A program made the position numbers and the translations under genes. From an uncultured Gammaproteobacteria bacterium (GTDB taxonomy: Bacteria; Patescibacteriota; Patescibacteriia; Magasanikbacterales; GWA2-37-8), in assembly GCA_964540825.1 (NCBI GenBank), contig CAZINT010000003.1:147250-211249 (forward strand): a stretch of DNA of 64,000 nt. The letters are read 5' to 3'. Shown here one piece after another: positions 2,311 to 64,000 of the stretch (position 1 is its first letter; every line of letters starts with the position of its first letter). A model generated the notes under the pieces. It did no database searches and was not told where the DNA came from. It saw only the letters and a program-made list of their open reading frames with translations.

Positions 2311-2350
2311 TTCACACGCGCAAAATCGCGCACAGTCAAAGGAGCTACCA

Positions 2351-2608
2351 ATGTTCAAAGGAATCACCCGCAAGCAGGGCGTCACCGCTTCCGGCCTCCT
2401 GGCCGTTTCGCTCATCACCTGTGGCGGGCCACCGCCCGAATCGTCGACCAGCAAGAACTCCGGCGCCTGCCAGTCGGCGACCATCCTGAACATCGTCACC
2501 GGCGTGCTCATGGCTTTACCACCCATGAGCATGGTGCAGCTGGCCTCGGGTATCGAGATGGAGAAGGTCTGCGCCCATCGTCTCGGCCCCGTAGCCACGC
2601 AACACTGA
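2351..2608 (+). CDS. Hypothetical small protein (85 aa) in a G+C-rich block
   Basis: Strong SD AAAGGAG, G/C-dominated third codon positions; antisense ORF 2272..2643 shares the wobble position so the strand assignment is ambiguous. Confidence 0.3.
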   Translation: MFKGITRKQGVTASGLLAVSLITCGGPPPESSTSKNSGACQSATILNIVTGVLMALPPMSMVQLASGIEMEKVCAHRLGPVATQH

Positions 2609-2740
2609 GTCGCGCCTAACCACAACAGCCGCTCGCGGAGCATAGTATCTTCGCTCTACCGGCATACTGCCGGCAACCCTGGGCTTCTCTCTACGAAGCC
2701 CAGGTAAAAAATTCTCTTGATTTAGAATCGAGAAAAAATA

Positions 2741-2776
2741 AACCACCTCTTTGGTTAAAGAGGTGGTTTATTTTTG
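2741..2776. terminator. Rho-independent terminator hairpin
   Basis: aaaccacctcttt-ggtt-aaagaggtggttt followed by ttttt; lies between the small ORF and the tRNA. Confidence 0.6.
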
Positions 2777-2848
2777 TGCACCCGTTAGGAGTCGAACCTA
2801 AATTTTCGGCTTCGCAGGCCAATGTCCTATCCATTGAACGACGGGTGC
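2777..2848 (-). tRNA. tRNA, anticodon GCG (Arg, CGY codons)
   Basis: Manual cloverleaf: acceptor GCACCCG/CGGGTGC, D-arm GTTC-AATGGATA-GGAC, anticodon arm TTGGC-CTGCGAA-GCCGA, T-arm TTAGG-TTCGACT-CCTAA, discriminator A; CCA not encoded. Confidence 0.7.
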
Positions 2849-2916
2849 GGAATGCTTTCTAAAAATGAAAGCCGCGTCAATATATCATATTTGGCGCGGC
2901 TTGTCAAAACCTATCG

Positions 2917-3423
2917 TTAGTGAATTTTGAGGATACGCGCCCATTTATCGCTGAGCGGCTCTTCTTCCTGATCAAGATCTTCCGGTATATAGCGCAATAA
3001 ATATTCACGGATGGCCAGCGGGTCGTTATCGAGCAGCGGTACCTGAAGGCGATGCTTAATGGTGTTATTTAAGGTAAAATATAAGTTTTTAACCTCATTT
3101 GGGTTATAGATCAGCCAAAAATTAGTGAGTTCGCTATAGCGGTAATGCTTCACACCAAGGACAATACCCGTGGTCGTAATGGCAAAAGGAATATCAATCG
3201 GGTCTTGCATGTCATGTAAATACATGACAATAGCAAACAAAATAATGATAAGCGCAAATAAATAATTGGCAGTAAAAAGCGCGTAGGCAACCAAAAGTAC
3301 GCCAATGCCGCCCATCACGATATACCAGCGGCGATCGCGGACATATTTTTCGTATTCTTTTACTTCCCAGTTGAACACTATTTCACCAAGCGGTACATCA
3401 ACTCGAGTAATATCTTTTGGCAT
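2917..3423 (-). CDS. Hypothetical membrane protein (two N-terminal TM helices, possible bacterial PH-like domain)
   Basis: 168 aa; hydrophobic stretches GGIGVLLVAYALF and LFALIIILFAIVMY followed by a soluble domain. Confidence 0.5.
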   Translation of the reverse strand: MPKDITRVDVPLGEIVFNWEVKEYEKYVRDRRWYIVMGGIGVLLVAYALFTANYLFALIIILFAIVMYLHDMQDPIDIPFAITTTGIVLGVKHYRYSELTNFWLIYNPNEVKNLYFTLNNTIKHRLQVPLLDNDPLAIREYLLRYIPEDLDQEEEPLSDKWARILKIH

Positions 3424-3556
3424 AAAATTAATTGGATGATGAGCGCAAACACGAGCGCTCTAGACGTTAGTATACCACAGTAAAAAACCTCTCACAAGGA
3501 ATATTGAACGAAGTCATACTCCATGCTATAGTAGGCTGCATGCTATATACAGCTCT

Positions 3557-11421: not shown

Positions 11422-11424
11422 CCT

Positions 11425-11922
11425 ATGGATCAAAACGTACTTACCCCTTCACCCACCAACCGTCGCCTTATCGGCATTATTGCCTTTGCTTTTTTGATTA
11501 CATTTGCGGCAGCACGCTTGATTGTCTATCTGGTTCTCGGGAAGCTGCTGCCCAACTTTTTTCTGACAGTACGCGGCGTGCATATTCACCATTTTACCTA
11601 CGGCGTATTTATTCTTGTCGGGGTTGGCTTTTACCTGCTTATGCGGCGCCCTCATATTGGCAGTCGCGCTTTTCGCTGGGCCACATTTATCTATGGCGTG
11701 GGACTCGGACTCACGTTCGACGAATTTGGCATGTGGATTCGCTTGCAGGATAATTACTGGGTACGTCAGAGTTATGACGCCGTCATCATTATCACTCTCC
11801 TTCTCCTCAATATCGCTTACTATAAATCGATCTTAAAATGGCTGAAAGAAATTCAGCACATGATACGCGAATACTTTTATAATGAGCCGATTTTGCCTGA
11901 GGATACTTCGGAAGACACCTAA
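11425..11922 (+). CDS. Hypothetical integral membrane protein (about 4 TM helices)
   Basis: 165 aa, four hydrophobic segments; translationally coupled to topA (4-nt gap). Confidence 0.5.
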   Translation: MDQNVLTPSPTNRRLIGIIAFAFLITFAAARLIVYLVLGKLLPNFFLTVRGVHIHHFTYGVFILVGVGFYLLMRRPHIGSRAFRWATFIYGVGLGLTFDEFGMWIRLQDNYWVRQSYDAVIIITLLLLNIAYYKSILKWLKEIQHMIREYFYNEPILPEDTSEDT

Positions 11923-11925
11923 CTA

Positions 11926-15526: not shown

Positions 15527-15610
15527 GCCCAGATGGCGGAACTGGTAGACGCACGGGACTCAAAATCCCGCGATGGCGACATCATGAGAGTTCGATTCTC
15601 TCTCTGGGCA
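15527..15610 (+). tRNA. tRNA-Leu (anticodon CAA), long variable arm
   Basis: Acceptor GCCCAGA/TCTGGGC, anticodon loop CTCAAAA, long variable arm, T-arm GAGAG-TTCGATT-CTCTC, discriminator A. Confidence 0.85.
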
Positions 15611-15656
15611 CTAAACTAAATACAGCTCCTCACAACGGGAGCTGTATTTAGTTTAG
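15611..15656 (+). terminator. Perfect 19-bp-stem hairpin immediately 3' of tRNA-Leu
   Basis: ctaaactaaatacagctcc / ggagctgtatttagtttag with an 8-nt loop, followed by TTCT. Confidence 0.5.
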
Positions 15657-15837: not shown

Positions 15838-15998
15838 TTTTGACTGCTTACACACACTTAATCCCATGCTTAACGCTCATCAAGTCTTGACAAAACGAGA
15901 AATGTATCCCAGTATACGCGCACCAGAAAGTAGCGCGCACTAGATGCGCGCCTGGCCCTGTCTGCAGTGGTTTCTAAAAGAAGAGTGGGAGGATGCCT

Positions 15999-16355
15999 AT
16001 GCGATGGCTTGGAATTTTGTTTTTAGTAGCTGGCTGCGAGGCGAGCCAGCCAGCGCAGCCCGAGGCGCGAGACGGCGGCGCGACCGCCGACCTTGTCCAC
16101 CACCCTCGCTCCGATGGAGGCGTTGCCTGCACTCTAGCAGCGCCTCAAGACTGCCGCCTCGTCCTTGAGGGACCGAACTGGTGCTGCCCTGAGAGCGCGC
16201 TCTGCGGCGGCAGCGTGGGAGCGTGCGAGCCGTGCCCGTCCATGCGGGGGCTGCGCGAGCACGAGTCCGGACCAGGGCTCTGCTACAACCAGATCTGCTG
16301 CCCGAGCGGCCGCTCGTGTGCGGTATCCGGGCCAGGCCAGTACTTCTGCAACTGA
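15999..16355 (+). CDS. Hypothetical cysteine-rich lipoprotein (G+C-rich block)
   Basis: SD GGGAGG 6 nt before ATG 15999; MRWLGILFLVAGC lipobox signal peptide; 11 more Cys in about 105 aa (CC, CxxC pairs). Confidence 0.45.
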   Translation: MRWLGILFLVAGCEASQPAQPEARDGGATADLVHHPRSDGGVACTLAAPQDCRLVLEGPNWCCPESALCGGSVGACEPCPSMRGLREHESGPGLCYNQICCPSGRSCAVSGPGQYFCN

Positions 16356-17690: not shown

Positions 17691-18090
17691 CTGGGGGTGG
17701 AAGGTACGTTCGGCGCTACCGAGGCAGCGCGGGCGAGAGAAGGAGGGGCGCGGTCGGAGCAGCCGGTCCGACGAGCTGCCAGATACTGTTTCCGATCTGC
17801 ACCCAGTACGAGCCGGCGGGGGCGCCGGCGGGAAGGGTTGCAGTGTAGGCGCTGCTCAGGGCAACGACGTCGAGGGCGACCATGCCTCCGGCGACGATCG
17901 CTCCAACAGCGAGGAGGCCGGCGAGCGTAGCTCTGCCGTTCGAGCCGTCCGGCGAGATGTAGTCCGGGCGGCCGCCCGGACCGATGACGAGACCCCTTCT
18001 TCGAGCAGCTGTTACATCCCCGAACATGCTGCCGGGGCCACTCCAGATGCGGACGGTCTGGGGGGTGGGGGTGGTGGGAGGGGTGGGGGT
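17635..18090. repeat. About 455-bp direct repeat copy 1 (pairs with 23911..24376)
   Basis: Essentially identical for about 325 bp then about 90% identical; covers the C-terminal module plus terminator of two paralogous genes. Confidence 0.85.
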
Positions 18091-18933
18091 GAGAGGAGGA
18101 TACCCCATTTGTTCCGGGCTGGGGAGAGGGCCATAGGTCCCATTGTAGCGCGGCCCACCTGGCGGCGGCGGAATCAGCGGAGTTGGGTTACCAGGACTCC
18201 AGACCCCCGAACCGGGCTGTCCGGGCTGCGGGCCAGTTTGGAAAAAGGCTTGCGGCCCGGTTCCAGGCCTGATTCCTGCCGGCGGCGGGAGCGGTGGCGG
18301 GAGTGGCAGCGGAGCTCCGGGTGCCCGATAACCCCCTGGTGGCAAGAGTCTGCCTCCGGGGGCTTGGTACCGCAGGCCGCCCGAGGGCGGATCGCCCCCC
18401 GGACAAGGCGGCTGCCCGAGTCCGCCACAGAAACGCGCACCAAGGATGCCGAGCGCTGCAGCAGCAGGAACTAGCAGGTTCAACGGTGAAAGTGTGCCTG
18501 GTGCGGCGAGCGGAGCAAGATCGGCGCCTTTTAGATCAAGGTGGTAGTGGTACTTCTCGAGGGCGTCCTGCATCTTCTCGATATCCATTTCGGGGTGGCG
18601 CGAAAGATAGTCGCGCACAGCTTCGGAGCCGATATGCCTGATCAGATTAGCCCGCGCAAGACGAGGAATCGAGCCCCACTCCTCAGGGGTATACCTATGC
18701 GGGGTCTCGATGTAGTCCGTTAGTCCGCACACCGGACAGTGCCCCTGGGGCTTGATGCGAACCAGCGGTGGCACTTCGAACACCATCACAGTGGCATCTG
18801 GCATGATCTCGGCAGGTGGCTGGCCGGCCTCGCGCATGCCCTCGTGGTTACAAATATGGGGCTGGTAGGCAAAGGCCCGCACGCTGGCGAACCAGCACAG
18901 CAGCATCACGGCCAATGTCACAATTCTTTTCAC
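17716..18933 (-). CDS. Secreted modular protein, type-A C-terminal module (unique Cys/His N-domain + Pro/Gly-rich linker)
   Basis: GTG start with perfect SD AGGAGGTGA; signal peptide MKRIVTLAVMLLCWFASVRAFA; PPLPPP/TPTPPTTPTP linkers; hydrophobic C-terminus GLLAVGAIVAGGMVALDVVAL...WQLVGP. Confidence 0.7.
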   Translation of the reverse strand: MKRIVTLAVMLLCWFASVRAFAYQPHICNHEGMREAGQPPAEIMPDATVMVFEVPPLVRIKPQGHCPVCGLTDYIETPHRYTPEEWGSIPRLARANLIRHIGSEAVRDYLSRHPEMDIEKMQDALEKYHYHLDLKGADLAPLAAPGTLSPLNLLVPAAAALGILGARFCGGLGQPPCPGGDPPSGGLRYQAPGGRLLPPGGYRAPGAPLPLPPPLPPPAGIRPGTGPQAFFQTGPQPGQPGSGVWSPGNPTPLIPPPPGGPRYNGTYGPLPSPEQMGYPPLTPTPPTTPTPQTVRIWSGPGSMFGDVTAARRRGLVIGPGGRPDYISPDGSNGRATLAGLLAVGAIVAGGMVALDVVALSSAYTATLPAGAPAGSYWVQIGNSIWQLVGPAAPTAPLLLSPALPR

Positions 18934-19222: not shown

Positions 19223-20203
19223 TCAGTGCTGACGATCACGCCGCGGCTGACCGGAGATCAGCATCTGATAGAGCTGCCGTGCTCTGGCTCGCCAGTACTG
19301 CTCACGCTGCGCACGGAAAAGCGGACGGTTGATATTACTTGGCTGGCTGCCAGTGTTAGGGTGGTGGTACTGGTAACCAATGGGTCCGCGGTGGATATGC
19401 CGCGGCAGCTCAACCAGCGGACTTCCCTGCCGCTGACCATCGTGATGTAGCTCGACCGGTTTGCCAAAAAACTTGTCGAGCGGGGGTGAGCCGTTGGCCA
19501 TGAGGAGCAAGTTGAACAAGTTCATCTCGTAGTAGAGACCGGCCCAGCCCTGATGCCGGAACGGCGCTGACCCATCGGAATTGAACTGGTTGCGGAGTGC
19601 CTGATAACTCATGTCGAGGACACCAGTCATCGTAGTCCCCACAAAAGGTGGCTGCGCGTCTTCTTCAGCTGCCACATAGTAACAAGTCTCGTCGACTGGT
19701 GTTCCTGGAGCAAAGAACGACTGGTTTCCCAGCGATTGTCCGGGCAACACGAGGCCACGACCTTGCGGCATCGGCTCGCCAAAAGCAGGAGCGCTGCCAG
19801 GTATCCCCGGCAAACGAAGCGGGCCAACGAGCGGCTGACCGGGCAACTGGAGTGTTTGGGGGCCACCAGGCAGACCTGGTCCACTCAAACCGCCGCCACC
19901 TTCCACTGCCGGACCGGAAACCGGCGGAAGCGGCAACCGCTGACCAGGGCCAGGGCCTCCAACCGGTCCGATAGTGTCAGTTCGCTGCCCGGTCGGAAGA
20001 TTCGGAAGATATTCGCCGACAAGTGGCGAAGCTGGCGCTCCACCACCCAGTGGCGGAAGCCCGGGCGCACCACGCCCCGGAATACGGAACGCAGGCGGCG
20101 GGAATCCTCGTTGGATGACCTGAGCCCTTACCGCATAGGGCGTAAAGAGCGCCACCGCACAGACGAGCACTGCAAGACACGATCGCAAACACCTGAATGG
20201 CAT
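19223..20203 (-). CDS. Secreted Pro/Gly-rich protein with a unique C-terminal globular domain
   Basis: SD AAGGAGG; signal peptide MPFRCLRSCLAVLVCAVALFTPYAVRA; long PG-rich linker; its own long inverted-repeat terminator at 19121..19192. Confidence 0.65.
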   Translation of the reverse strand: MPFRCLRSCLAVLVCAVALFTPYAVRAQVIQRGFPPPAFRIPGRGAPGLPPLGGGAPASPLVGEYLPNLPTGQRTDTIGPVGGPGPGQRLPLPPVSGPAVEGGGGLSGPGLPGGPQTLQLPGQPLVGPLRLPGIPGSAPAFGEPMPQGRGLVLPGQSLGNQSFFAPGTPVDETCYYVAAEEDAQPPFVGTTMTGVLDMSYQALRNQFNSDGSAPFRHQGWAGLYYEMNLFNLLLMANGSPPLDKFFGKPVELHHDGQRQGSPLVELPRHIHRGPIGYQYHHPNTGSQPSNINRPLFRAQREQYWRARARQLYQMLISGQPRRDRQH

Positions 20204-20374: not shown

Positions 20375-21334
20375 TTACTGCAGCAGTGGCAGCAGGAGCC
20401 CGGGGGGCCTTGTGCCGGGTAGGACTGGGAGACCGGGCCCCGAGGGCGGCAGGCGCAGCGGGCCTAGCGGGAGGGTGGCAGTGGGGGTGAGAAGCACCGC
20501 TCCAGCAGCGGCAGCAGCAGGGATCAGTCGATAGGCCTGTTTGGTCGCAGCGTCGACCACTGCCAGGCAGCGTCCCGGAACTGCAGCACAGGCGGTACCG
20601 ACGACGGCGACAGCTTGAGCCGTGTAGTAGGCTCCGACCAAGATGACGATGCCGCCTGAGACGAGTGCGCCGTTGACGGCGACCTGGAGGGGGGTCTCCG
20701 GGTAGCCGCCGAAGGCTCCTCCGCCGTCGGGGACCCAGCCGCGGAGGCCGCCAAGGGGATTTTGACCAAAGGCTCCGGGGGTGGGATAGGCAGGCAGGAG
20801 ACCGCGATTGAGCTGCCCATCAGGGACACCCAGCGGTCGCCAGCCTTTGTATGCAGCCTGCGGCGCCTGCACACGAGCAGGCCCACGTGGCGTATCATTG
20901 CACTCCAAACTCCCGACAGTCGGAATGGCGTTGCCTTGGCATACCATTGGTCCGGGTATACCCTGAACACTGAAGAGGGAGACACCGGGGAACATGGAGC
21001 GAATCATAGATTCATTTCCATCCTGCATACTGTAGGGGTAAAGTGTAAGGCGCCACACTCCCACGCCGAAGTCTCCGGTCTCCACGTCCCGAACATAGCA
21101 GTGATCAGCGGCACCGGGCCGTTGGCGCCAGAGCTGCCAATGACCGTGCTCCGGCGGGCTGCCGTTCACCCGACTGGTCCGAAGCAAATAGAAGTTTGGC
21201 CCGGGGAAAACCAGCACCACCACGTTGCAGACCACCATAATATCCCTATTGTCAGGTGGCGGAACTGCTTGTGCGAGTGGTGGCTGACTGGCCAGCGCCA
21301 ACAGCAGCAAGGCTATCATTTTCAACCAACGCAT
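20375..21334 (-). CDS. Secreted modular protein, type-B C-terminal module
   Basis: Start at internal Met MRWLKMIALLLLALASQPPLAQA (signal peptide, SD AAGGAAGG); C-terminal module PLQVAVNGALVSGGIVILVGAYY..GTACAAVPGRCL..LIPAAAAAGAVLLTP + Leu/Pro tail. Confidence 0.65.
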   Translation of the reverse strand: MRWLKMIALLLLALASQPPLAQAVPPPDNRDIMVVCNVVVLVFPGPNFYLLRTSRVNGSPPEHGHWQLWRQRPGAADHCYVRDVETGDFGVGVWRLTLYPYSMQDGNESMIRSMFPGVSLFSVQGIPGPMVCQGNAIPTVGSLECNDTPRGPARVQAPQAAYKGWRPLGVPDGQLNRGLLPAYPTPGAFGQNPLGGLRGWVPDGGGAFGGYPETPLQVAVNGALVSGGIVILVGAYYTAQAVAVVGTACAAVPGRCLAVVDAATKQAYRLIPAAAAAGAVLLTPTATLPLGPLRLPPSGPGLPVLPGTRPPGLLLPLLQ

Positions 21335-21657: not shown

Positions 21658-23385
21658 CTATCGGCGATAGGCGAAGCCGAACTCCGGAAGGACGGTGAAG
21701 CTCTCACGAGAGTAGCCCGTCGTCTGGCTTGGCATGACGAGCACCACGTTGTCCGGATTGGACCGATCGACTACCGGCTCTCCAGTCACGAGTTCGCCAG
21801 TTGACCGCAGGTACCCGACGGTAGCAGCAGCAAAGAAACCGAACTGGCGACGAATACCGCTCTTGCCCAGGTAGACCTCGATCGATGGCTTGAACCCCAG
21901 CAAGAAGTACTTCTTCGAAGAATCGCCCTTCTGACGGAACTCTTCGTCTGACAGGTCATGACCGCCACCGCCGATGACAACCCCGAGATCGATAGCAACA
22001 TTTGGACTGGGGTTATAAGAATACCCTCCGTACCCGACAGCAGCGACATCATTCCTGCCTGAGAGCTGCAGGCTCAGACCTCCACAGATGGCGTTGTTGC
22101 TCAGCTGGTTGTGAAAGAAACAGAACTTGCCGCCCAGATTTCCACCAAGCGCACCCTCGCGATTCAGCTCGTAGCGAAAGAGTCCGCCCCCGTAGAGCGT
22201 CATCATGAAGTTGCTGTCACCCCGGTCCGCCTGGATCAGGGCCCGCTGAGCGCCGATAGCACCGGTGCAGTATTGGGCGACCTGGATGGGATCGAAATTC
22301 TCGCCGCCGGCCACGTTCCGACGCACCCACCGCTCGCAATCCTTCGCGCTGCTGAACTCCGGGGGGTTGGCGGGGTTGCCGGTGAGCGGCCGGCTACCGA
22401 CCTGAGCCTGAGGCAGTGTTGCTCCGGGCGGCTGAGCAGTCTGGGGGTTGCAGTAGGCATTCACCCCCTCTGGGGTGTTCTGCGCGGCGGTCCCGACCGC
22501 CTTGAGATACTCCCAGGTCTTGGCCACGCAGTCGGGGCTGCCCGGCTGCGGCTGCTGGGGTGCCTGACCCTGGATGCGCGGAGCCAGCTGGTGGGCCTGC
22601 GCCGTGAGCGTCTGGCACGTGGCGTCCTTCCCCTGAGGGTCGTGCTGGTAACAGCAGCCCACTACCATGCCCTTGTTTGAGAAGCACTGCTGCAGGTTGC
22701 CTCCCAGGCTGGCATCGGCCACACGTGCGACCCGGCACAGGGAAACGTTTGCCGACTCGGCAGGGAAAGAGTCGCAGCAGGCCCGCACTCGCTCGTTGAC
22801 GGCCTGAGGGGTATTGTAGCTTGCGTCCGCGGTTGGTGATGGGGCGGTCGTCTGGGCGAGACACGTCTCGAGGAGCTGAGCGGGCGGAACAGCCGCAGGC
22901 CCCGCGGTGAGGGGGGCGCCCGCCGTGCCCGGCAGGGGCGCCGGAGGGGCGGACTGCGGAGCCACAGGAGGGGCAGCCGCAGGGGCGGGGGCGGCTGGCG
23001 TGGAGGCGACGGCGACGGGCGGCGACGTACTGCTCAGCTGAGTGACAGCACCGCTCGCCTGCTGGCACAGGCTCCTGAAGAGGCGGCCGTTCGGCGTGTT
23101 GGTCTGCTGAGCAAGGTGGTTTGACCAGCAGCAATTCTGGGTTCCGCGCCAATAAGCCGCCAAGTCCTTGCTCTTGTCCGGGACCACCGTCAGGCAGCCC
23201 TTCATGGCAGCAACCGATGCGTCGATCATCTCCCGTGAGGGCGGGCCAGCTACTTGCGCTGTGGGGGCGCTGGGCTGGCTGCTGGCCGCCGGCTTGGCAT
23301 CGGCGTTGGCGTGCAGTGGCGCGAGCCACAGCAAGAGTAGCGTCAGCAAAGCCGCTGACAGGCACGAAAACTTGGATCGTGACAT
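21658..23385 (-). CDS. Secreted Cys-rich repeat protein with a Gly/aromatic-rich beta-type C-terminal domain
   Basis: Start at MSRSKFSCLSAALLTLLLLWLAPLHANA with SD AAGGAGG; three or more C..CC..C repeats separated by Ala/Pro linkers; C-terminal about 200 aa with alternating hydrophobic/Gly/aromatic pattern ending FGFAYRR. Confidence 0.65.
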   Translation of the reverse strand: MSRSKFSCLSAALLTLLLLWLAPLHANADAKPAASSQPSAPTAQVAGPPSREMIDASVAAMKGCLTVVPDKSKDLAAYWRGTQNCCWSNHLAQQTNTPNGRLFRSLCQQASGAVTQLSSTSPPVAVASTPAAPAPAAAPPVAPQSAPPAPLPGTAGAPLTAGPAAVPPAQLLETCLAQTTAPSPTADASYNTPQAVNERVRACCDSFPAESANVSLCRVARVADASLGGNLQQCFSNKGMVVGCCYQHDPQGKDATCQTLTAQAHQLAPRIQGQAPQQPQPGSPDCVAKTWEYLKAVGTAAQNTPEGVNAYCNPQTAQPPGATLPQAQVGSRPLTGNPANPPEFSSAKDCERWVRRNVAGGENFDPIQVAQYCTGAIGAQRALIQADRGDSNFMMTLYGGGLFRYELNREGALGGNLGGKFCFFHNQLSNNAICGGLSLQLSGRNDVAAVGYGGYSYNPSPNVAIDLGVVIGGGGHDLSDEEFRQKGDSSKKYFLLGFKPSIEVYLGKSGIRRQFGFFAAATVGYLRSTGELVTGEPVVDRSNPDNVVLVMPSQTTGYSRESFTVLPEFGFAYRR

Positions 23386-23965: not shown

Positions 23966-24376
23966 CCTGGGGGTGGAAGGTACGTTCGGCGCTACCGAGG
24001 CAGCGCGGGCGAGAGAAGGAGGGGCGCGGTCGGAGCAGCCGGTCCGACGAGCTGCCAGATACTGTTTCCGATCTGCACCCAGTACGAGCCGGCGGGGGCG
24101 CCGGCGGGAAGGGTTGCAGTGTAGGCGCTGCTCAGGGCAACGACGTCGAGGGCGACCATGCCTCCGGCGACGATCGCTCCAACAGCGAGGAGGCCGGCGA
24201 GCGTAGCTCTGCCGTTCGAGCCGTCCGGCGACATGTAGTCCGGGCGGCCGCCCGGACCGATGATGAGACCCTTTCTTCGAGCGGCTGTTACATCTGCGAA
24301 CACCCAATCGGTCCAACTGCCCCTACCACTCCAGACGCGGACGGTCTGAGGGGTGGGGGTGGTGGGAGGGGTGGGA
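23911..24376. repeat. About 455-bp direct repeat copy 2 (pairs with 17635..18090)
   Basis: See copy 1. Confidence 0.85.
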
Positions 24377-24975
24377 GATTGGCCAGGCTGTTGAAGCCCC
24401 ATTCCCGGTCCTTGTAGGCCTGGGAGCGGGCTGGGGGGCGGCGGGTATGTAGGAAGACGAAGCGGACCGGGGGCAGGGGTGTATTGGCCAGGGAGGGGCA
24501 GACCCGGAGGTTGGCCTTGAGGGCCGGATGGCGTTCCCATCATCATCTTCAGACCGGGCGGATAGTACCGCCCACCCGCTTCAAATACGGTTGGCCCCGA
24601 GGGAGTAGCCTGTATGTACATGGGCGCTCGGGGCGCCGGGTGATCCGGTCCTTGGCCACGCCTGCCATAGCAGGGGTCCTGGGGGTTTTCAGCATTACCA
24701 AAGATCACTTTGTTTTCCGTGATCTGCTGAGCGAGCCGCTGAGAATCGAGGGCATCAAGACTAAACCGATTAACAAAAAATTCCTCGTGCAGACGATTTT
24801 GCACCGCCGACTCTCGGTAGTCCCGTTTGACAATGGACTGGTCGGGGCAGATGTAAAACTGAATAAATATCGGCCGCCCATCCGGCCCCGTCGGGAACAG
24901 CTGAGCGCCGCCTTGTCCGGCCAGAACAAAAAAGAACACTGTCGCGAGAACTACTGTTGCTACTATTCGCGTCAT
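23992..24975 (-). CDS. Secreted modular protein, type-A C-terminal module (different N-domain from 17716..18933)
   Basis: SD AAAGGAGT; signal peptide MTRIVATVVLATVFFFVLAGQGGAQ; C-terminal 110 aa identical to gene 17716..18933. Confidence 0.7.
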   Translation of the reverse strand: MTRIVATVVLATVFFFVLAGQGGAQLFPTGPDGRPIFIQFYICPDQSIVKRDYRESAVQNRLHEEFFVNRFSLDALDSQRLAQQITENKVIFGNAENPQDPCYGRRGQGPDHPAPRAPMYIQATPSGPTVFEAGGRYYPPGLKMMMGTPSGPQGQPPGLPLPGQYTPAPGPLRLPTYPPPPSPLPGLQGPGMGLQQPGQSPTPPTTPTPQTVRVWSGRGSWTDWVFADVTAARRKGLIIGPGGRPDYMSPDGSNGRATLAGLLAVGAIVAGGMVALDVVALSSAYTATLPAGAPAGSYWVQIGNSIWQLVGPAAPTAPLLLSPALPR

Positions 24976-25241: not shown

Positions 25242-26333
25242 CTAGCGGAGCAACGGAGCCGCTGGAAGGTACAATGACGCTGCCGGTTTCGCCAGCTGCC
25301 AACCCAAGTTGCCAACCTTGATCCAGATGGATCCGAGCGGAGCGCCCGGTGGCAGTGTTGTTGTGACGGCAGCATCAAGCGCTACCCATTCGAGAGCGAC
25401 GAGGCCGGCAGCCACAACTGATCCGACAGCGAAGAAGCCAACCAGACTGCCTTGGGCGTCTTGCGCCGGATCTCGCGATCCGAGTTCGGGTCCAAAGGGA
25501 CCCCAACGAACACCCCCGGCTCTGGCCTCTTGTTGGCCCTGAAGCCCTTGTCTGAAGGCAGAGAGAAGACCACTACTTACTCCACGGTAGATGCGGAGGC
25601 CGAGGTTGGATGGGGGTGGTAGCTGAAGCGTAGAAGGAGTGCCGGGAAGTGCCGGGGTGGTAAGCTGGGGTGGGAGGCGGAGTGGAGACGCAGGTTGTGC
25701 AAAAACGAGTTCACCACTTGGTGTTGGCGCTCGAAAAAATACCGGTCCACGCCGAGGCAGCGTTTCAGCTACAGGATTTTCTTGTCCGGAAGTCTGGGGT
25801 CCGCGCGGACGGCAATCCCCCACTTTATGTTTTTGGTTACAGGAATTATGTAGACCCCACATCTCCCGAACACCACTCGGATAGTTCCAGTACAGAATCG
25901 AGTACTCGCTTCGAGGCGGACCAAGCACCGGAGCGAGCCCGGCGATATCATCGTCGTTCAAACGGAAGTACTGATCCCCTTTGTATCCTTGGCGCTCTTC
26001 GCGCTCCCCCGGACCAAAAAGATCACGCTGACGCTGCCACCGATAGAGCCAGGTGGTGTCGACCGAGCTCTGCACCTTGTACCACCAACCGCTTGCGCTG
26101 CAGAACCCTTCGATGATGTAGTGAGCCTTTTGACCCGCCCATGGGTCGACGGTTCTTCCCAGCGGCCCGACCTCATGGCCGATTCGGAACTGAATAAGGG
26201 TCGGGTGGTTACAGTGCGGACACAGCGTGCTCGCTTCCGGCTGATGGACGATCTTGGGGTCTTTCTGCCCCCATGCGATAGACGGGCTTGCGAGAAGCCC
26301 GACAAAATAGAGTGCAAGCCAGAACAGTTTCAT
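25242..26333 (-). CDS. Secreted modular protein, divergent type-A C-terminal module
   Basis: SD GGAGGT; signal peptide MKLFWLALYFVGLLASPSIAWGQ; Cys-containing N-domain; C-terminus LVGFFAVGSVVAAGLVALEWVAL..TLPPGAPLGSIWIKVGNLGWQL. Confidence 0.7.
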   Translation of the reverse strand: MKLFWLALYFVGLLASPSIAWGQKDPKIVHQPEASTLCPHCNHPTLIQFRIGHEVGPLGRTVDPWAGQKAHYIIEGFCSASGWWYKVQSSVDTTWLYRWQRQRDLFGPGEREERQGYKGDQYFRLNDDDIAGLAPVLGPPRSEYSILYWNYPSGVREMWGLHNSCNQKHKVGDCRPRGPQTSGQENPVAETLPRRGPVFFRAPTPSGELVFAQPASPLRLPPQLTTPALPGTPSTLQLPPPSNLGLRIYRGVSSGLLSAFRQGLQGQQEARAGGVRWGPFGPELGSRDPAQDAQGSLVGFFAVGSVVAAGLVALEWVALDAAVTTTLPPGAPLGSIWIKVGNLGWQLAKPAASLYLPAAPLLR

Positions 26334-35088: not shown

Positions 35089-35131
35089 GCCTCACCCCCC
35101 CTTGCACCAGGCCTCGCCTGGTGCACAACTA

Positions 35132-35160
35132 AAAAATCCCGATTGCGTCGGGATTTTTTA
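35132..35160. terminator. Bidirectional terminator (serves secY and the membrane-protein gene)
   Basis: aaaaaatcccga-ttgcg-tcgggatttttt. Confidence 0.7.
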
Positions 35161-35171
35161 GTAGAATTCTT

Positions 35172-48349: not shown

Positions 48350-48488
48350 ACAAATATAAATTGACCAAAAAAGAAGCTCCTCCGACTTTTGGCATTATAA
48401 AACGGTTTTACCGTTTGGTCAAACAGGCTTAAAAATAAAAAAACACCTATGGTTAGGTATTCACTTTTTGCTGTAGGAAGAGAGGGGT

Positions 48489-48522
48489 GGCAACCTCTCT
48501 GACCGAGGTCAGAGAGGTTGCC
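48489..48522. repeat. Perfect 16-bp-stem hairpin at the edge of a G+C-rich insertion
   Basis: ggcaacctctctgacc-ga-ggtcagagaggttgcc. Confidence 0.6.
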
Positions 48523-48770
48523 GAGGTCGCGCGCCGCTGCCGGATACTTCTCCAAGGAGAAGGCCCGCGCCCGCGGTGGACGACGAACTTGATGTCCCAG
48601 TTGCGCTGCCAGCGCCCGGATGAAGGCGATCATCCCAGGGCCCGCAGCAGCAGGAACTTACTTCTAGAAGACCGACATGTAGTGCCGGCGCCGCGGATGT
48701 CTGCACCGAGGTGCAGTTCGCCGCGTCGCCGAGCGCTACAGGTGCCGTGGGTCGCGCCGGCGCAGCTGAG

Positions 48771-48911
48771 TTAGTTGACGATCATGTGCTCGCGGTCGCC
48801 GTCGCCGTTGCCGAGGCTGGAGGTGTTGCCGCCGCGCATGTGGTCGAGGGACAGGCCGCCGCCGAACTTGCGGTTCGAATAGGTGCCCATGTGGCGCATG
48901 TGCTCGTTCAT
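48771..48911 (-). CDS. Candidate 46-aa peptide with extreme GC3 and repeated His-Met motifs
   Basis: ATG..TAA, 45 of 46 sense codons end in G/C; MNEHMRHMGTYSNRKFGGGLSLDHMRGGNTSSLGNGDGDREHMIVN; weak SD. Confidence 0.3.
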   Translation of the reverse strand: MNEHMRHMGTYSNRKFGGGLSLDHMRGGNTSSLGNGDGDREHMIVN

Positions 48912-49083
48912 CGGGAATCTTCTTTCAATTTTTGTTTGTTGTCACCACTCGTTTCCGAGGGTATGAACACCCTGCCACAATCCCCCATTATTGTCAAGCC
49001 TACAGGTGTGGAAAACTTAAAAAGCCTTATTTTTTACTAAAAATAAGGCTTTTTAAAGTTAAGGTAATTTTTTATGTACACTT

Positions 49084-53300: not shown

Positions 53301-53591
53301 TTAGGGCTCGGGCGGGGGCGGGACATAGCCAGCCTGGCCCGGCGGAGGCGGGACGATAGGCGGGTGCGTGATGCAGATGTTGCCCCAGATGGGGTGATGC
53401 CACGTCTGGCTGTGCCAGACTGGCGGCAATTGCCGGATGCCGCGACCAGCCATAAAGATCGAAAAAAAGAACACGGTGACCAACACGTATGCTGGCCAGG
53501 TCGGTGCAACGGGCGTTCGGCTTACGACCACACCCGTGGCATGCTCCAGTGCAACCGGCAGCGCTTCCGAGGCGGTTTCAGGAGTCGACAT
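53301..53591 (-). CDS. Small single-pass membrane protein with polyproline C-terminal tail (G+C-rich)
   Basis: Perfect SD AAAGGAGG; TM WPAYVLVTVFFFSIFMAG; tail PPIVPPPPGQAGYVPPPPEP. Confidence 0.5.
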   Translation of the reverse strand: MSTPETASEALPVALEHATGVVVSRTPVAPTWPAYVLVTVFFFSIFMAGRGIRQLPPVWHSQTWHHPIWGNICITHPPIVPPPPGQAGYVPPPPEP

Positions 53592-53706: not shown

Positions 53707-54075
53707 ATGAACACCCTCGTCCAACGACTCTCTGGGAATCTCCGAAGCAAGAAAGACTATCCGCTCAATTTTCTAGGGCGACTGCTGCTGTTTCTGGAGC
53801 ACCATCCCGACGGTGACCACGGCGACCCGGAGTGGTTTGCAGCGATCGTCGAAAGCCTCTGGCGCTTCTCGTCCGGAGAGACCACCGGCCTCACGCAGTG
53901 GGCGCAGGAGACACTTCCCTCCTACGACGACATGCGACGCGACTGGCGAGCTCTGCACAACTACCTCAGCGCGTCCCGCCACCGGAACACGGCACCAAGG
54001 GACATCGTGGACGAGCTGCTGACCTGCGCTCGTACGGCCTGTCTGTCGCACAACGCCCGTCTGCTACTGCACTAA
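53707..54075 (+). CDS. Hypothetical soluble protein (G+C-rich), divergent from 53301..53591
   Basis: SD GGAGGA 4 nt before the ATG; 122 aa; G/C-biased third positions. Confidence 0.45.
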   Translation: MNTLVQRLSGNLRSKKDYPLNFLGRLLLFLEHHPDGDHGDPEWFAAIVESLWRFSSGETTGLTQWAQETLPSYDDMRRDWRALHNYLSASRHRNTAPRDIVDELLTCARTACLSHNARLLLH

Positions 54076-54421: not shown

Positions 54422-54760
54422 GTGCGTGCCTCCTTGTTGAGCGTTGATCCCAAAACAGATAAAAAACCAATGTATCCGGAAGGTATAGACAGATTATCCT
54501 GTCCATACCATACATTTTTTCTCTGACTGTTTCAGGAACGTTGCGCGACTTTTTTCTCTTCTCATTATAATGAACGATGCTTCCTTATTTTTCACTATTT
54601 GAATTTCAGGAAGATCAGTATGATACCTGTTTTTTTTATTTTTGTCAACAGAATTTCTTTTACGCATATTATAAGATGGTTAATTTTGGCTAAAACAAAG
54701 CAACCGAGTCTTGACAAAACCTCTAAAATGCGCTAGGGTGTTTCGTTGTTCTTTACCTTG

Positions 54761-54808
54761 TTTTCTAGCTGAAAAGGCAGTTAAAAACTCTCTTTTCAGC
54801 TAGAAAAC
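54761..54808. promoter_or_regulatory. Perfect 16-bp inverted repeat between a TTGACA-N17-TAGGGT promoter and the SD of gene 54835 (candidate operator)
   Basis: ttttctagctgaaaag ... cttttcagctagaaaa. Confidence 0.4.
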
Positions 54809-54834
54809 CACACTTTTTAGGGGGTACAACACCA

Positions 54835-55224
54835 ATGTTCAAGCAAAATATCGTCGAAACGTCCGCCAAGACCGCCATCTTCGCCTCGCTGGTGATTGGG
54901 GCGCTGATTGCCGCGGGCGGCCTCGCCACCCCGGAGTTCCAGCTGCTGGCTGGAGTCCAGCTCGTGAGCGCAGCGCTTCTCGCCTGCCTCAAGCTCAACC
55001 AGGCAAAACGCACCGAGCTGTACAGTTTCGATCTGTACGACCTCACGTGCACGATCGTGATCGGCTTTTTGACGCTCATGAACGTGCTGGCGGGCAGCAT
55101 TTTCGAAAGCTGCCTCATGCTGCCCTGCCTCGGCCTGGCCGCGGTCGGCTTGGGGCTCTACAGCTTCAGCTGGCTCCGCGAGCTGAAGCATCGCGAGCAC
55201 TTCGGCGCTGAGCGGCAAAGATAA
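54835..55224 (+). CDS. Hypothetical 4-TM membrane protein (G+C-rich)
   Basis: SD AGGGGGT; 129 aa with four hydrophobic helices. Confidence 0.5.
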   Translation: MFKQNIVETSAKTAIFASLVIGALIAAGGLATPEFQLLAGVQLVSAALLACLKLNQAKRTELYSFDLYDLTCTIVIGFLTLMNVLAGSIFESCLMLPCLGLAAVGLGLYSFSWLRELKHREHFGAERQR

Positions 55225-55348
55225 CAAATACCGGACGCCTGGCACTCCGCCAGACGTCCGAGTCTTCATTCTGCAGATCACTTGCGTGGTAAACAGAAGA
55301 AAAAAAATAACCCCGATACTCGGGGTTATTTTTTATACGCATCAATAC

Positions 55349-61488: not shown

Positions 61489-61490
61489 AT

Positions 61491-62306
61491 ATGCATAAGC
61501 ACGTACGGGGGTCGGCGCTTCTCGCCACCATGCTCATTACTGCGGTCGTGAGCGGGGCAATTGTTTATAACTTGGAACACGATTTGTTCCAAAATGCTCT
61601 GCAAGAAAATTATATTTTGTATCAAAAAGAATTTGCCAACCAAAAATTGGCGCTTGATACGCTGCGTTTACGTCAGCAGGTTGAGAATCCCGCGAATACG
61701 GCTGATTTTGGGGCGTTTTGCGCCGCTAATAAAGCACTGTCGCCAAAAATTGTACAAACTCCTGCTGGCAAAGTGGCGCTCAATTCCATTATCAGCGGAA
61801 AACTCACGCTGCAGACCCCGGCCGGTGAAAAAATATTGTCTGATAAAATTAATCTGTACGGCGGCGCTGCTACCGTTACATTTACCACCACCTCTGTACC
61901 CACAGTTGCGCGGGCCTATATTCTTCCAAACAAAGACGGACTTAATGGCGCCGAAGAATTTCATTATGTTGATACCGCCGCTAACACTATAACCAGTATC
62001 AAAGTCAAATACCTCCACCCAACTACCACACTTGAGATTACCCTGCCTAACAAGAGTATCATTGATCTTGCCTATGAACCAACCAAAGGCATCATGGTAA
62101 ACAACAAACTTGGTTTTGCGCTTCCAACGAACGCTCCAACCCTCACCATTTTGTTTAATGGCATCAGTAAAGATCTCAAAACCGTCTATTTTACAATGAC
62201 CAACACCTACAGTTCAGCTTCGGATATGCAGACCGGGCCATATGCGCTTAATCTCGCTACCAAAAAGATTACTTTACTTACAACCGCAACTGACATTCTT
62301 GAATAG
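61491..62306 (+). CDS. Hypothetical secreted/signal-anchored protein
   Basis: 271 aa, N-terminal hydrophobic segment LLATMLITAVVSGAIV. Confidence 0.5.
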   Translation: MHKHVRGSALLATMLITAVVSGAIVYNLEHDLFQNALQENYILYQKEFANQKLALDTLRLRQQVENPANTADFGAFCAANKALSPKIVQTPAGKVALNSIISGKLTLQTPAGEKILSDKINLYGGAATVTFTTTSVPTVARAYILPNKDGLNGAEEFHYVDTAANTITSIKVKYLHPTTTLEITLPNKSIIDLAYEPTKGIMVNNKLGFALPTNAPTLTILFNGISKDLKTVYFTMTNTYSSASDMQTGPYALNLATKKITLLTTATDILE

Positions 62307-62316
62307 CCACCTCCAT

Positions 62317-63300
62317 ATGACCAAACCTGTTATTTTCTCAGGCATCCAACCGACCGGCAACCTCCATATTGGCAATTATTTAGGAGCAGTTAAAAACTGG
62401 GCAGAACTGCAAAACAGCGGCAAGTACGATTGCTTTTTTTTCATTGCCGATTACCACTCGCTTACCGGGCAAGATACGGCTGACGACCGCCGCGCCAAAA
62501 TTCTAAATCTTGCAGCCGAAATTATTGCTCTGGGTGTTGATCCGGAACGCGTTACTTTTTTTGTACAGTCCCACGTCCCTGAGCACACCGAACTGGCTTG
62601 GGTTTTTAACTGTGTCACGCCAGTTGCCGAGCTTGAACGCATGACCCAGTTCAAAGATAAAGCCAGCCGTCAGGAAAAAAATATTAATGCTGGCCTCCTC
62701 ACGTACCCGGTTCTTCAAGTCGCCGATGTACTCCTTTACCACGGCACACTCGTTCCGGTTGGGCAGGATCAAGTGCAACACATCGAACTCATTCGGATTG
62801 TGGCACGCGCCTTCAACAAACGCTACGGCGAATACTTCTCAGAAACCAAACATCTTTTAACCGAGTTCCCCAAGGTTATGAGCCTTTTGGAACCAGCCAA
62901 AAAAATGAGCAAGTCGCTCGGCGCTGGTCACATAATCGAACTTTCCGAAGAACCGGCACAGATCGAAGCCAAACTTAAAAAGGCTGTAACCGCAACCGAA
63001 GGCGGCGCTGAGGCTCCGGGCGTTCAGAACCTTCTCGCGCTCCTTAAAGAATTTGGCAGCAGCGAGATCTACGAAACACTTGCCAAAGCGGAGAAAAATG
63101 GTACGATCCGTTATGGAGACTTGAAGCACGAATTGGCCACAGCCATTGCCACGTACTTCGCCGACTTCCGCGCCAAACGCAACGAACTTTTAGCAAACCC
63201 AAAAGAACTAGAAAATATTCTCGGAATTGGAGCGGCAAAAGCACAAAAAGTGGCCGCTAAAACCATGCAGGACGTTCGAAAACTTGTCGGCATCCGCTAG
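62317..63300 (+). CDS. trpS: Tryptophanyl-tRNA synthetase
   Basis: Start at MTKPVIFSGIQPTGNLHIGNY (HIGH), KMSKS present. Confidence 0.9.
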   Translation: MTKPVIFSGIQPTGNLHIGNYLGAVKNWAELQNSGKYDCFFFIADYHSLTGQDTADDRRAKILNLAAEIIALGVDPERVTFFVQSHVPEHTELAWVFNCVTPVAELERMTQFKDKASRQEKNINAGLLTYPVLQVADVLLYHGTLVPVGQDQVQHIELIRIVARAFNKRYGEYFSETKHLLTEFPKVMSLLEPAKKMSKSLGAGHIIELSEEPAQIEAKLKKAVTATEGGAEAPGVQNLLALLKEFGSSEIYETLAKAEKNGTIRYGDLKHELATAIATYFADFRAKRNELLANPKELENILGIGAAKAQKVAAKTMQDVRKLVGIR

Positions 63301-63314
63301 TTCTTTAAAAAATT

Positions 63315-63362
63315 CCGTTAAGGAAAAGAGGTGTTTTTTAAGACGCCTTTTTTCCTTAACGG
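63315..63362 (+). terminator. Hairpin terminator of trpS
   Basis: ccgttaaggaaaa ... ttttccttaacgg with an internal T-run. Confidence 0.55.
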
Positions 63363-63384
63363 AAAAAACTACCTGGAGGCTGTC

Positions 63385-64000
63385 ATGCCACAAAAACCGC
63401 GTCGACAGAACCCGAAGCCGAGAACGCTTCTCGGGGTGCAGGGCGTTGTGTTCCTGCGCTTTACGTCAGCTTTGCTCCTTACCGGTGCTTGCTGGTGGAT
63501 CTGGACTCGAACCAACGCTGGCTCATTGCAGTGGTGGGAGGCCCCGCTCTTAGCACTTCTGGTGCTTTTTGTCTCGCCCACGGAGCTTCTCGCGCACAAA
63601 TACGGACTCCACCACCTTCCGAAGCACATCACCATCTGGGGCTTTACAATCAAACTCCCGGACACGAGTTCTGCCCGGCATCACCGCCTCCATCACCGTA
63701 AACAAGCCCGAGTGGAGTGGATTTTTATTCCGCTCGCCGCCGCACTGCTTGTGGTCTTCGGGCTCTCGGGGATCGGCACGCTCCTCAGCAACCTTACCGA
63801 CTTCCCGGTGGTCGCTGTCGCCGACATCTGCGCCTTCGTCTTTCTGAGAGTCCTTTGGGAAGAGGAGATGCACTACCTGGCGCATTGCACCTCCTACAAG
63901 CCAGAAGCTGGCACGCTCTGGGCGGGGTACGTGTTGAGAGTAACGACCCCACACAAGCGCCATCACCAGCGCAACGAAAAATTCAACTGGGAAGTGAGCA
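63385..64000 (+). CDS. Partial (runs off the window) hypothetical His-rich membrane protein (G+C-rich)
   Basis: SD GGAGG 6 nt before the ATG; no stop before the window end; several hydrophobic segments; HHRLHH, KRHHQR. Confidence 0.4.
   Translation, partial: MPQKPRRQNPKPRTLLGVQGVVFLRFTSALLLTGACWWIWTRTNAGSLQWWEAPLLALLVLFVSPTELLAHKYGLHHLPKHITIWGFTIKLPDTSSARHHRLHHRKQARVEWIFIPLAAALLVVFGLSGIGTLLSNLTDFPVVAVADICAFVFLRVLWEEEMHYLAHCTSYKPEAGTLWAGYVLRVTTPHKRHHQRNEKFNWEVS

Follow-up and report, generated by a model that had tools for sequence, protein, structure and literature searches.

The window analysed here is a stretch of 64,000 nucleotides from a metagenome-assembled genome (MAG; assembly GCA_964540825.1, contig CAZINT010000003.1). 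It is a core-gene region that includes the ribosomal-protein superoperon, and about one fifth of it consists of GC-rich gene blocks, referred to below as cassettes, that lie between the core genes. Whole-window GC was 0.489, and a 400-nt profile showed a background of ~0.40-0.50 broken by sharp peaks of 0.55-0.73. A sliding GC scan (150 nt, threshold 0.56) delimited segments at 2291-2720, 15911-16500, 30461-31400, 34441-35170, 48441-48960, 53171-54400, 54791-55300 and 63361-63980, as well as seven segments across 17601-28670, and all nine blocks that an earlier note on this DNA had picked out were recovered in this way. Weaker rises (0.54-0.57) inside dprA, parB, parA, adk and tgt were ordinary. 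The core reference set comprised 37 annotated genes, including recG, der, pth, dprA, topA, relA/spoT, parAB, a class II aminoacyl-tRNA synthetase (aaRS) gene, recO, ruvX, map, adk, secY, ribosomal protein genes, tuf, fusA, uvrD, tgt and trpS, with a GC of 0.472 (standard deviation, sd, 0.023) and a GC at third codon positions (GC3) of 0.450 (sd 0.049, range 0.36-0.53). In comparison, the open reading frames (ORFs) of the nine blocks, at least 17 in number, had GC values of 0.55-0.68 (3.4 to 9 sd above the core) and GC3 values of 0.57-0.98. The strong GC3 bias claimed previously for three of them was confirmed (2351..2608, 0.82; 48771..48911, 0.98; 53707..54075, 0.75).

Each GC-rich block appears to be a complete transcription unit placed in a gap between conserved core genes, with a layout that would consist of an AT-rich promoter, a strong Shine-Dalgarno (SD) sequence, a GC-rich coding sequence (CDS), a C-rich 3' untranslated region (3'UTR) and a GC hairpin terminator. 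SD-like sequences (GGAGG or GGAG) were present 5-10 nt upstream of the block ORF starts, except for a 46-aa ORF (b5), and the spacers inside the large array at 17.7-28.9 kb had a GC of only 0.34-0.48, both in agreement with the earlier description. Its view that the GC-richness is confined to the genes was correct for the CDSs but too narrow, as the GC-rich extent also takes in ~60 nt of 3'UTR and terminator; the 60 nt past the stop codon had a GC of 0.60 in block genes versus 0.38 in core genes, and no rise was seen upstream of the start codon. These units would be limited to a small number of hot spots: recG|tRNA-Arg, tRNA-Leu|metallophosphoesterase, metallophosphoesterase|aaRS, aaRS|recO, adk|secY, tuf|fusA, rpsL|uvrD and downstream of trpS.

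The first block adjoins tRNA-Arg(GCG) (2776..2848, minus strand) and holds lipo1 (2351..2608, plus strand; GC 0.64), an 85-aa putative lipoprotein gene (lipobox LITC) that lies between recG and the tRNA gene and whose cluster at 90% identity contains this genome alone. In the interval between tRNA-Leu(CAA) (15527..15611, plus), which marks one of the hot spots, and the metallophosphoesterase gene lies lipo2 (15993..16355, plus; GC 0.68, GC3 0.75), whose product is a putative lipoprotein of 120 aa, rich in Cys (lipobox LVAGC). Of the nine blocks, two adjoin tRNA genes. The gap between the recO and class II aaRS genes contains, in antisense orientation, b3 (30463..31329, plus; GC3 0.68), which encodes a 288-aa cytoplasmic protein for which Pfam and PDB sequence searches returned no match. 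Its sequence contains HxD...H and RxS motifs (visible as GHRD, PHRV and RVS), and an AlphaFold (AF2) model (predicted local distance difference test score, pLDDT, 60; predicted template modelling score, pTM, 0.68) gave Foldseek top matches that were mostly 2-oxoglutarate (2OG) oxygenases, including the nine best, although all were weak (E >= 0.05); b3 is possibly a divergent 2OG-Fe(II) oxygenase. The multi-pass membrane protein b4 (252 aa; 34330..35088, plus; GC3 0.62) is encoded antisense between adk and secY and shares a bidirectional terminator hairpin (35128..35162, plus) with secY.

GC-rich DNA was also verified in the tuf-fusA gap and upstream of rpsL. The former contains b5 (48480..48915, minus), composed of the 46-aa ORF (48771-48911, GC3 0.98) and ~290 nt of GC-rich, strongly folding 3' sequence (48480-48770, minus; fold z-score of -5.5 against shuffles, 15-bp hairpin at its end), which matched no Rfam family and may represent a structured 3'UTR, an RNA gene or another small ORF. 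Two ORFs follow, b6b (53301..53591, minus; 96 aa, one hydrophobic segment, GC3 0.73) and b6 (53707..54075, plus; 122 aa), the latter upstream of rpsL. The b7 cassette (54594..55330, plus) comprises a promoter, a ~110-nt hairpin leader, the CDS, a 3'UTR and a terminator, and encodes a 129-aa four-helix membrane protein (54835-55224, plus). The coding strand of this block (54791-55300) was ambiguous to gene callers; the plus-strand ORF was favored by its GC3 of 0.84, its SD and the presence in a sister species of an orthologue of 129 aa with 81% identity. The last cassette, b8 (63385..64000, plus; GC3 0.71), is the 5' part of a gene for a 254-aa His-box membrane protein that runs past the window end; this truncated gene showed visible His-rich motifs and a weak match to Pfam FA_hydroxylase (23 bits versus a cut-off of 31, E 1.2e-4). 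Structured RNAs were considered as a cause of the GC-rich patches and rejected, as Rfam at gathering thresholds gave two tRNAs only; a permissive Rfam scan of 48.3-55.4 kb found sub-threshold generic hairpins only.

An eleven-kilobase array of secreted proteins

The largest block is an 11-kb array of eight monocistronic minus-strand genes (A-H), all of which encode Sec signal peptides. A common design recurs in six members (A, C, E, F, G and H): the N-terminal part varies, a stalk rich in Pro and Gly follows, and all six end in the same kind of C-terminal module of ~100 aa, which contains one or two hydrophobic helices and a Pro-rich tail. Gene A (17716..18933; GC 0.66) shows this full arrangement from signal peptide and variable head to hydrophobic module, F (25242..26333) carries a type-1 module, and C (20375..21334), G (26544..27434) and H (27824..28903) carry type-2 modules. 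E (23992..24975) ends in a 3' portion and 3'UTR identical to those of A, the identity being 100% over 300 nt (17634-17933 = 23910-24209) across the CDS 3' end and 3'UTR, and this gene-converted 3' part has the highest GC3 within both genes (0.78-0.82). C, F, G and H have a terminator motif in common (GACTC..GAGTCTTC). A structure model of H with the five paralogues as alignment was unusable (pLDDT 37), the signal helix and a C-terminal helical hairpin alone being visible.

The two remaining genes fall outside the six paralogues. Gene B (19223..20203) encodes a signal peptide, a Pro/Gly-rich linker and, at the C-terminus, a nuclease toxin domain of the LHH (HNH/EndoVII) type (Pfam PF14411, E 2.1e-14, 53.9 bits versus a cut-off of 23.3) in which the ELHH motif is present. 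The 289-nt spacer downstream of B contained no coding-strand ORF of >=60 aa that could represent an immunity gene (shorter ORFs fell outside the scan), and the next gene is A. Gene D (21658..23385; GC3 0.75) encodes a 575-aa secreted Cys-rich protein without the family module, and Pfam, NCBIfam, PHROG, PDB and plasmid searches found no match for it.

A reading of this largest block as several separate acquisitions was not borne out. Because of the common C-terminal module, the 300-nt identity between A and E and the terminators shared by C, F, G and H, the 11-kb block is best described from its sequence as a largely in-situ tandem expansion of a paralogue family with gene conversion. A profile of the module, searched with hmmsearch against six-frame translations of all fetched loci, matched only the genome of the window, and the sister contigs break at the array position. 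One of them (L175, 1-146) ends 146 nt past the metallophosphoesterase gene, exactly where array A-H starts, which suggests a repeat-induced assembly break and hence a comparable array in that genome.

Turnover of cassettes at shared sites

The nearest SecY relatives of the window genome (78-89% identity) are third-party annotation (TPA) MAGs that all carry the label 'uncultured Gammaproteobacteria'. Since those that were examined keep the same gene order, this label is evidently a placeholder. Among the SecY relatives at 70-75% identity in a species-representative genome collection, several are labelled Candidatus Magasanikbacteria, Magasanikiibacteriota or Patescibacteria group. In addition, no rpmD (L30) gene is present between rpsE (37004-37513) and rplO (36536-36973), which are separated by 30 nt, and gene calls for L002, L004 and L010 (contigs introduced below) likewise pass directly from S5 to L15. 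A missing L30 gene in the spc operon is a trait found across the candidate phyla radiation (CPR). Both lines of evidence uphold the previous suggestion of a CPR-type organism, and on these sequence grounds the genome is assigned to Candidatus Magasanikbacteria (CPR/Patescibacteria).

Loci of four close relatives were compared by cluster and contig look-ups, with each sister genome sampled around a few loci. L004-L009 belong to a population from Joint Genome Institute (JGI)/Logan data (core protein identity mostly 85-95%); L010, L175 and L177 derive from GCA_964510495.1 (SecY 96% identical to the window), L012 and L174 from GCA_964634875.1 (89%), and L013-L015 have SecY proteins 78-80% identical. 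Core synteny is conserved between the window and these genomes. The junctions of core genes and cassettes also recurred in per-run assemblies. In the Logan assembly of SRR11567520, contig L001 reproduced H-G-F, L002 reproduced aaRS-b3-recO...adk-b4-secY and L172 reproduced b6b-b6-...-uvrD...trpS-b8, while a second run (SRR11567528) had b4 and b6 on contigs of its own. The sister genomes, which were assembled separately, have GC-rich genes at the same sites. Because the per-run assemblies repeat the junctions and the sister genomes fill the same sites, mis-assembly is very unlikely and the GC-rich blocks are real.

At these sites, the gaps of close relatives are empty, hold a very diverged orthologue or hold an unrelated GC-rich gene, which amounts to gain, loss and replacement. 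The secY/adk site, occupied by b4 in the window, contains a GC-rich orthologue with 33% identity and a GC3 of 0.75 in L004 and is empty in L012-L015 (157-270 nt); the interruption of this operon noted earlier is evident from the gap of 1,024 nt here, compared to 157-270 nt in L012, L013 and L014. L010 has an additional, unrelated GC-rich lipoprotein gene at this site (11279-12314), with a copy of the secY terminator hairpin on each side, the two being inverted relative to one another (AAAAAATCCCGA..TCGGGATTTTTT), which hints that insertion or duplication occurs at terminator hairpins. Between recO and the aaRS gene, b3 is accompanied in L004 (62% identity) by a 124-aa lipoprotein gene and in L012 (34% identity) by a lipoprotein gene on either side, and nothing is present in L013. 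In L013 the metallophosphoesterase and aaRS genes are 70 nt apart, so that the site of the 11-kb array is empty there. In L004 and L012 the aaRS gene is followed by one unrelated GC-rich gene each (335 and 347 aa; GC3 0.89 and 0.94), and other GC-rich orphans were found at the same site in more distant Magasanikbacteria.

The remaining sites follow the same pattern. Where the window has b5 and a normal-GC gene of 279 aa between fusA and tuf, L174 has a different GC-rich lipoprotein gene and a 94-aa ORF; on the recG side, lipo1 is replaced in L177 by three different GC-rich ORFs; and b6b has a 43%-identical match in L174. The tRNA-Leu/metallophosphoesterase site, which holds lipo2 in the window, contains a 109-aa ORF in L175. 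In L013 a full-length M1 aminopeptidase/leukotriene A4 (LTA4)-hydrolase-type gene (17256-19112; GC3 0.90) lies in this tRNA-Leu hot spot; as a member of a widespread family, it offers the best available starting point for tracing a donor. An elongation factor G (EF-G) metagenome scan found only relatives with <=83% identity and without GC-rich outliers in that region, which limits the phenomenon to a narrow clade and to sporadic occurrences behind the aaRS gene of other Magasanikbacteria.

One cassette, b7, shows a recent exchange between species. From promoter to terminator, the DNA of the unit has 83-91% identity to its counterpart in L174; the CDS has a synonymous divergence (dS) of 0.24 and a nonsynonymous divergence (dN) of 0.11, and 89% of the 4-fold degenerate sites at conserved residues are identical. 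By comparison, the flanking genes uvrD, rpsG, fusA and tgt have 4-fold identities of 0.40-0.51 (random 26-30%) and are near-saturated. Even if b7 sites are constrained to two states (G/C), the random expectation would be 0.43 against the observed 89%. The cassette is therefore much younger than the surrounding genomes, and its low divergence implies that it moved between the lineages, or into both from one source, after their split. The promoter (TTGACA-17-TAGGGT) and ~110-nt leader (54594-54834; L174 7052-7300) are >90% identical between the two species, and the leader forms a long hairpin at ~54770-54815 without an Rfam match; it may act as a regulatory RNA or may just belong to the recently exchanged unit. 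Taken together with the sites that are empty or refilled in relatives and the differing compositional signature (see below), b7 supports in part the proposal of repeated horizontal acquisition; the array itself is mostly the product of duplication in situ.

Some other cassettes are old. b3 is present in three species and b4 in two, with saturated synonymous sites; their 4-fold identity is at the random level (0.33-0.36 versus 0.30-0.34 expected). GC3 differs between age groups: cassettes seen so far in a single species or recently exchanged have values of 0.82-0.98 (b5, 0.98; the 347-aa gene of L012, 0.94; the M1 peptidase of L013, 0.90; the 335-aa gene of L004, 0.89; b7, 0.84), and those shared by two or three species have values of 0.62-0.73 (b3) and 0.62-0.75 (b4). 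As a rough trend, this fits import followed by amelioration. Rough decay arithmetic brings an ancestral GC3 of ~0.95 to ~0.67-0.70 today, close to the observed values, and a saturation test of maintained versus relic GC was accordingly dropped as it could not discriminate between the two.

Many cassettes have a C-rich, G-poor tract right after the stop codon (e.g., CACCCCTCCTC and CCTCACCCCCCC) followed by a GC hairpin; examples lie at 16356-16420, 35089-35110 and 54076-54130 of the window and in cassettes of L004, L010 and L012, and core genes do not have it. The sequence GAGTCTTC occurs six times (1.6 expected), five times at cassette 3' ends, and is suggestive at most as a shared cassette-end motif because four of the six copies are paralogous terminators.

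Composition and source of the cassettes

The GC-richness had been attributed to the composition of a donor genome rather than merely to Pro/Gly/Ala-rich proteins. To separate the two, each protein was re-encoded with core codon usage and its expected GC was compared with that observed. For array genes A-H, the expected GC was 0.55-0.60 and the observed GC 0.58-0.66, with protein composition accounting for 47-77% of the excess; the array proteins contain 13% Pro, 11% Gly and 11% Ala, and their Gly/Ala/Arg/Pro (GARP) fraction is 0.41 versus 0.24 in the core. For lipo1, b3, b4, b5, b6 and b7, composition accounts for 9-35% of the excess and the remainder is synonymous; the value for lipo2 is 59%. 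Every cassette had an observed GC3 above the expectation from core codon usage (in b7, 0.84 versus 0.48, with a 4-fold GC of 0.91), and the non-Pro/Gly codons of the array had a mean GC3 of 0.66 that was uncorrelated with local Pro/Gly content (r = -0.15). Codon usage thus did not become uniform once amino acids were controlled for, and the GC3 bias persisted. In the small blocks the excess is mostly synonymous, and half or more of the excess in the array stems from Pro, Gly and Ala.

Karlin-type dinucleotide relative abundances (delta*, x1000) were also compared. Both the array and the small blocks differed from the core by 136, and by 69 from one another, compared to a mean of 30-38 (maximum 92) for random equal-size core subsets against the remaining core. 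The window core differed from sister cores by 33 and window cassettes from sister cassettes by 50-71, while cassettes differed from either core by 119-140. Cassettes of several species therefore form one compositional class apart from the native genomes.

From these results, we consider it the most plausible account, with a probability of roughly 0.6, that the cassettes are a flexible, laterally exchanged pool of non-native composition that has been expanded locally by duplication. Over the time in which species diverge, cassettes would be acquired, exchanged for others and lost, and some would pass between related species, probably by DNA uptake and recombination via the conserved flanks. Resident cassettes would be amplified by tandem duplication and gene conversion, as in array A-H, and the composition would be the imprint of a GC-richer source pool that is slowly ameliorated after arrival. 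The cargo is predicted to comprise secreted, lipo- and membrane proteins restricted to the lineage, together with two enzyme-like proteins and a secreted nuclease of the LHH type. A role at the cell surface, in host contact or in antagonism is likely, as suggested by the signal peptides, lipoboxes and secreted nuclease encoded in these sequences.

Several observations weigh against this account. No integrase, transposase or clear target duplication was found in the window: none of the scanned ORFs matched an integrase or mobility gene in Pfam, NCBIfam or PHROG, and a direct-repeat scan of 15800-29100 found the A/E pair only (300 nt plus a linked 59-nt repeat) and no repeat flanking a block. 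GC-richness starts at the CDS, and promoters and SD sequences look native, unlike wholesale import of a DNA segment. Although their 4-fold sites are saturated, b3 and b4 still have a 4-fold GC of 0.68-0.75 in each of the two or three species that carry them, which is only marginally compatible with simple amelioration. The age trend comes from about a dozen genes and from sister genomes sampled around a few loci only, and gene class and amino-acid content act as confounders of the dinucleotide signature. Searches for a source likewise stayed within the clade. Array protein H matched itself alone among 5.8 billion clusters (a search in which low-complexity words saturated the candidate list), b3 had homologues within its own clade only, and the B toxin domain had no word-sharing relatives. 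The module profile, run with full HMMER against 1.84 billion representative proteins, yielded, apart from the six paralogues, a single fragment of 91 aa and a single spurious match of low complexity. Clusters at 90% identity were singletons or from the same population, and NCBIfam, PHROG, PDB, plasmid and viral-contig searches gave no match.

The same findings could be read as an endogenous origin, in which the cassettes are native, fast-evolving, lineage-specific genes whose GC has been raised by a local process, either GC-biased gene conversion through recombination and paralogue conversion or selection on mRNA structure or stability, with Gly/Ala/Arg/Pro-rich proteins as a consequence. The orphan status of the tested products, which lack an outside relative, GC-richness that matches the transcribed unit (CDS and 3'UTR) next to AT-rich promoters, the persistent 4-fold GC of b3 and b4, the peak GC3 (0.78-0.82) in the gene-converted part of A and E, the elevated GARP fraction of the array (0.41 versus 0.24) and the one signature common to cassettes of different species would all be expected. 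GC3 shifts attributed to biased gene conversion in bacteria amount to a few percent, however, which the shift from 0.45 to 0.98 in cassettes exceeds. Moreover, presence/absence and non-homologous replacement indicate gain and loss and not steady vertical descent, the M1 aminopeptidase of L013 (GC3 0.90) belongs to a widespread family and is hard to call a native orphan, and the younger cassettes have the higher GC3, the opposite of a cumulative drive. We therefore regard an endogenous origin as doubtful. A more speculative version, to which we give a rather small chance, would combine exchange with a local mechanism: the cassettes would be a second gene compartment of orphan surface and effector genes, kept GC-rich (GC3 0.6-1.0 versus 0.45 in the core) by an exchange-linked endogenous process and shared across species without an integrase. 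That process may be GC-biased repair during transformation-driven cassette swapping at terminator hairpins, and if so, GC-richness would mark a cassette-exchange system and not a foreign donor.

Within the favored reading of a laterally exchanged pool, the identity of the source matters. Some CPR lineages (Saccharibacteria) live on Actinobacteria, and the earlier note proposed that a high-G+C host, for example an actinobacterium, had been the direct donor; GC3 values of up to 0.98 and cassette GC values of 0.60-0.68 would fit a donor with 65-70% GC. This proposal found no backing here: the tested cassette products (H, b3, the module and the B domain) had no homologue outside the clade in very large collections that include Actinobacteria, and the plasmid search was empty. 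High-GC CPR bacteria are also found among the SecY relatives (loci with a GC of 0.55-0.65, e.g., L042, L046, L057 and L066) and are equally plausible sources. In groundwater Patescibacteria, horizontal gene transfer (HGT) islands are common and paralogues rare, most transfers occur within the phylum, and Actinomycetota were a rare donor, with 1 event among about 130 (PMC12455944). As a source, a GC-rich pool of CPR or mobile DNA that has been poorly sampled is no less plausible than an actinobacterial host, and we hold direct actinobacterial transfer to be highly improbable. An artefact of chimeric assembly, binning contamination or a pure amino-acid effect with uniform codon usage might be suspected from the fact that the genome is a MAG, that GC-rich DNA gives long spurious ORFs and that the array proteins are 24% Pro plus Gly. 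The recurrence of core-cassette-core junctions in independent per-run assemblies and separate sister genomes, ORFs with SD sequences, signal peptides or lipoboxes, conserved orthologues (b3, b4, b7 and b6b) and one Pfam domain, and a GC3 above the core-codon expectation in every cassette (e.g., b7, 0.84 versus 0.48) make such an artefact scarcely credible.

Relation to known systems

The mosaic is a variant of the known 'flexible genome' or 'genomic islet' theme. It shares with genomic islets a deviating composition, sites between syntenic core genes (two beside tRNA genes), a cargo that differs between sister species at the same site, and surface proteins and toxins among that cargo. Measured against a classical genomic island, composition (GC, GC3 and dinucleotide signature) and variable presence agree, but no mobility gene was found among the scanned ORFs. 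The unusual points are a cargo with a higher GC than the host, against the usual tendency of accessory DNA to be AT-richer; cassettes without an integrase or transposase, and without flanking direct repeats in the stretch scanned for them (15800-29100); single-gene units, some of them in the ribosomal-protein superoperon; and proteins without relatives elsewhere, homologues being confined to a very small clade.

Integron cassette arrays are similar in their single-gene units of one orientation, GC-rich imperfect hairpin ends and largely orphan cargo. They differ in that no IntI integrase or attI was found in the window (attC was not modelled explicitly), each unit here has a strong SD and an AT-rich spacer (with a sigma-70 consensus match in one spacer only), the array hairpins resemble intrinsic terminators and not attC, and six of the eight units are paralogues. 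Gene B recalls the polymorphic toxin systems described by Zhang and Aravind in its secretion signal, low-complexity linker, C-terminal LHH domain (PF14411) and position in a cluster of related secreted proteins. Unlike in those systems, variation in the surrounding family lies in the N-terminal parts and the C-terminal module stays constant, which is the reverse arrangement; no immunity gene was found downstream of B among coding-strand ORFs of >=60 aa, and Sec alone is implied for secretion.

The HGT islands of groundwater Patescibacteria, to which up to 13% of genome length has been attributed, are comparable in that they occur in CPR genomes, involve membrane-associated functions and reflect mostly within-phylum exchange (PMC12455944). 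That work relied on island predictors and donor-recipient pairs among co-assembled MAGs, and the part of it considered here describes no class of GC-rich orphan cassettes, no hot spots in the S10-spc-alpha operon and no multi-copy families (PMC12455944). Because paralogues are very rare in these genomes according to the same source, array A-H is unusual.

The genomes of CPR bacteria are very small and a host-attached lifestyle is assumed for them, yet the proteins that make this contact are mostly unknown. The cassettes, with a secreted nuclease and an array with a six-member family, are obvious candidates for determinants of host range or antagonism. Composition-based binning and decontamination tools may flag them as foreign, and such genes may be under-reported in CPR MAGs. 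As accessory DNA that is GC-richer than its host, has a signature common to several species and lacks a traceable donor, they also offer a clean test case for distinguishing donor imprint from biased gene conversion with existing population data.

Three further features of the window were noted. A 647-aa protein of normal GC (58937-60880, minus) starts with a Gly/His/Lys-rich low-complexity segment (MAGHGGGKGKGPGGGHKGGGHH...) and is a singleton at 90% identity, its sole family match being a sub-threshold one to Pfam GDC-P (E 5.7e-4). In the S10 operon, the gap between rpsJ and rplC (45675-46116) is unusually long (440 nt) and AT-rich (GC ~0.36) and holds the sixth copy of GAGTCTTC, whose strand is not that of the operon genes but the other one; this gap may be what is left of a lost cassette. 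Finally, a small acidic protein with a conserved N-terminal 'KKTGDR..V..D' motif (47963-48349, minus) and a weak, sub-threshold match to PhdYeFM antitoxins is encoded in the fusA-tuf gap both here and in many of the inspected loci of related CPR bacteria, and it is this gene, and not the GC-rich block, that is the regular occupant of the gap.

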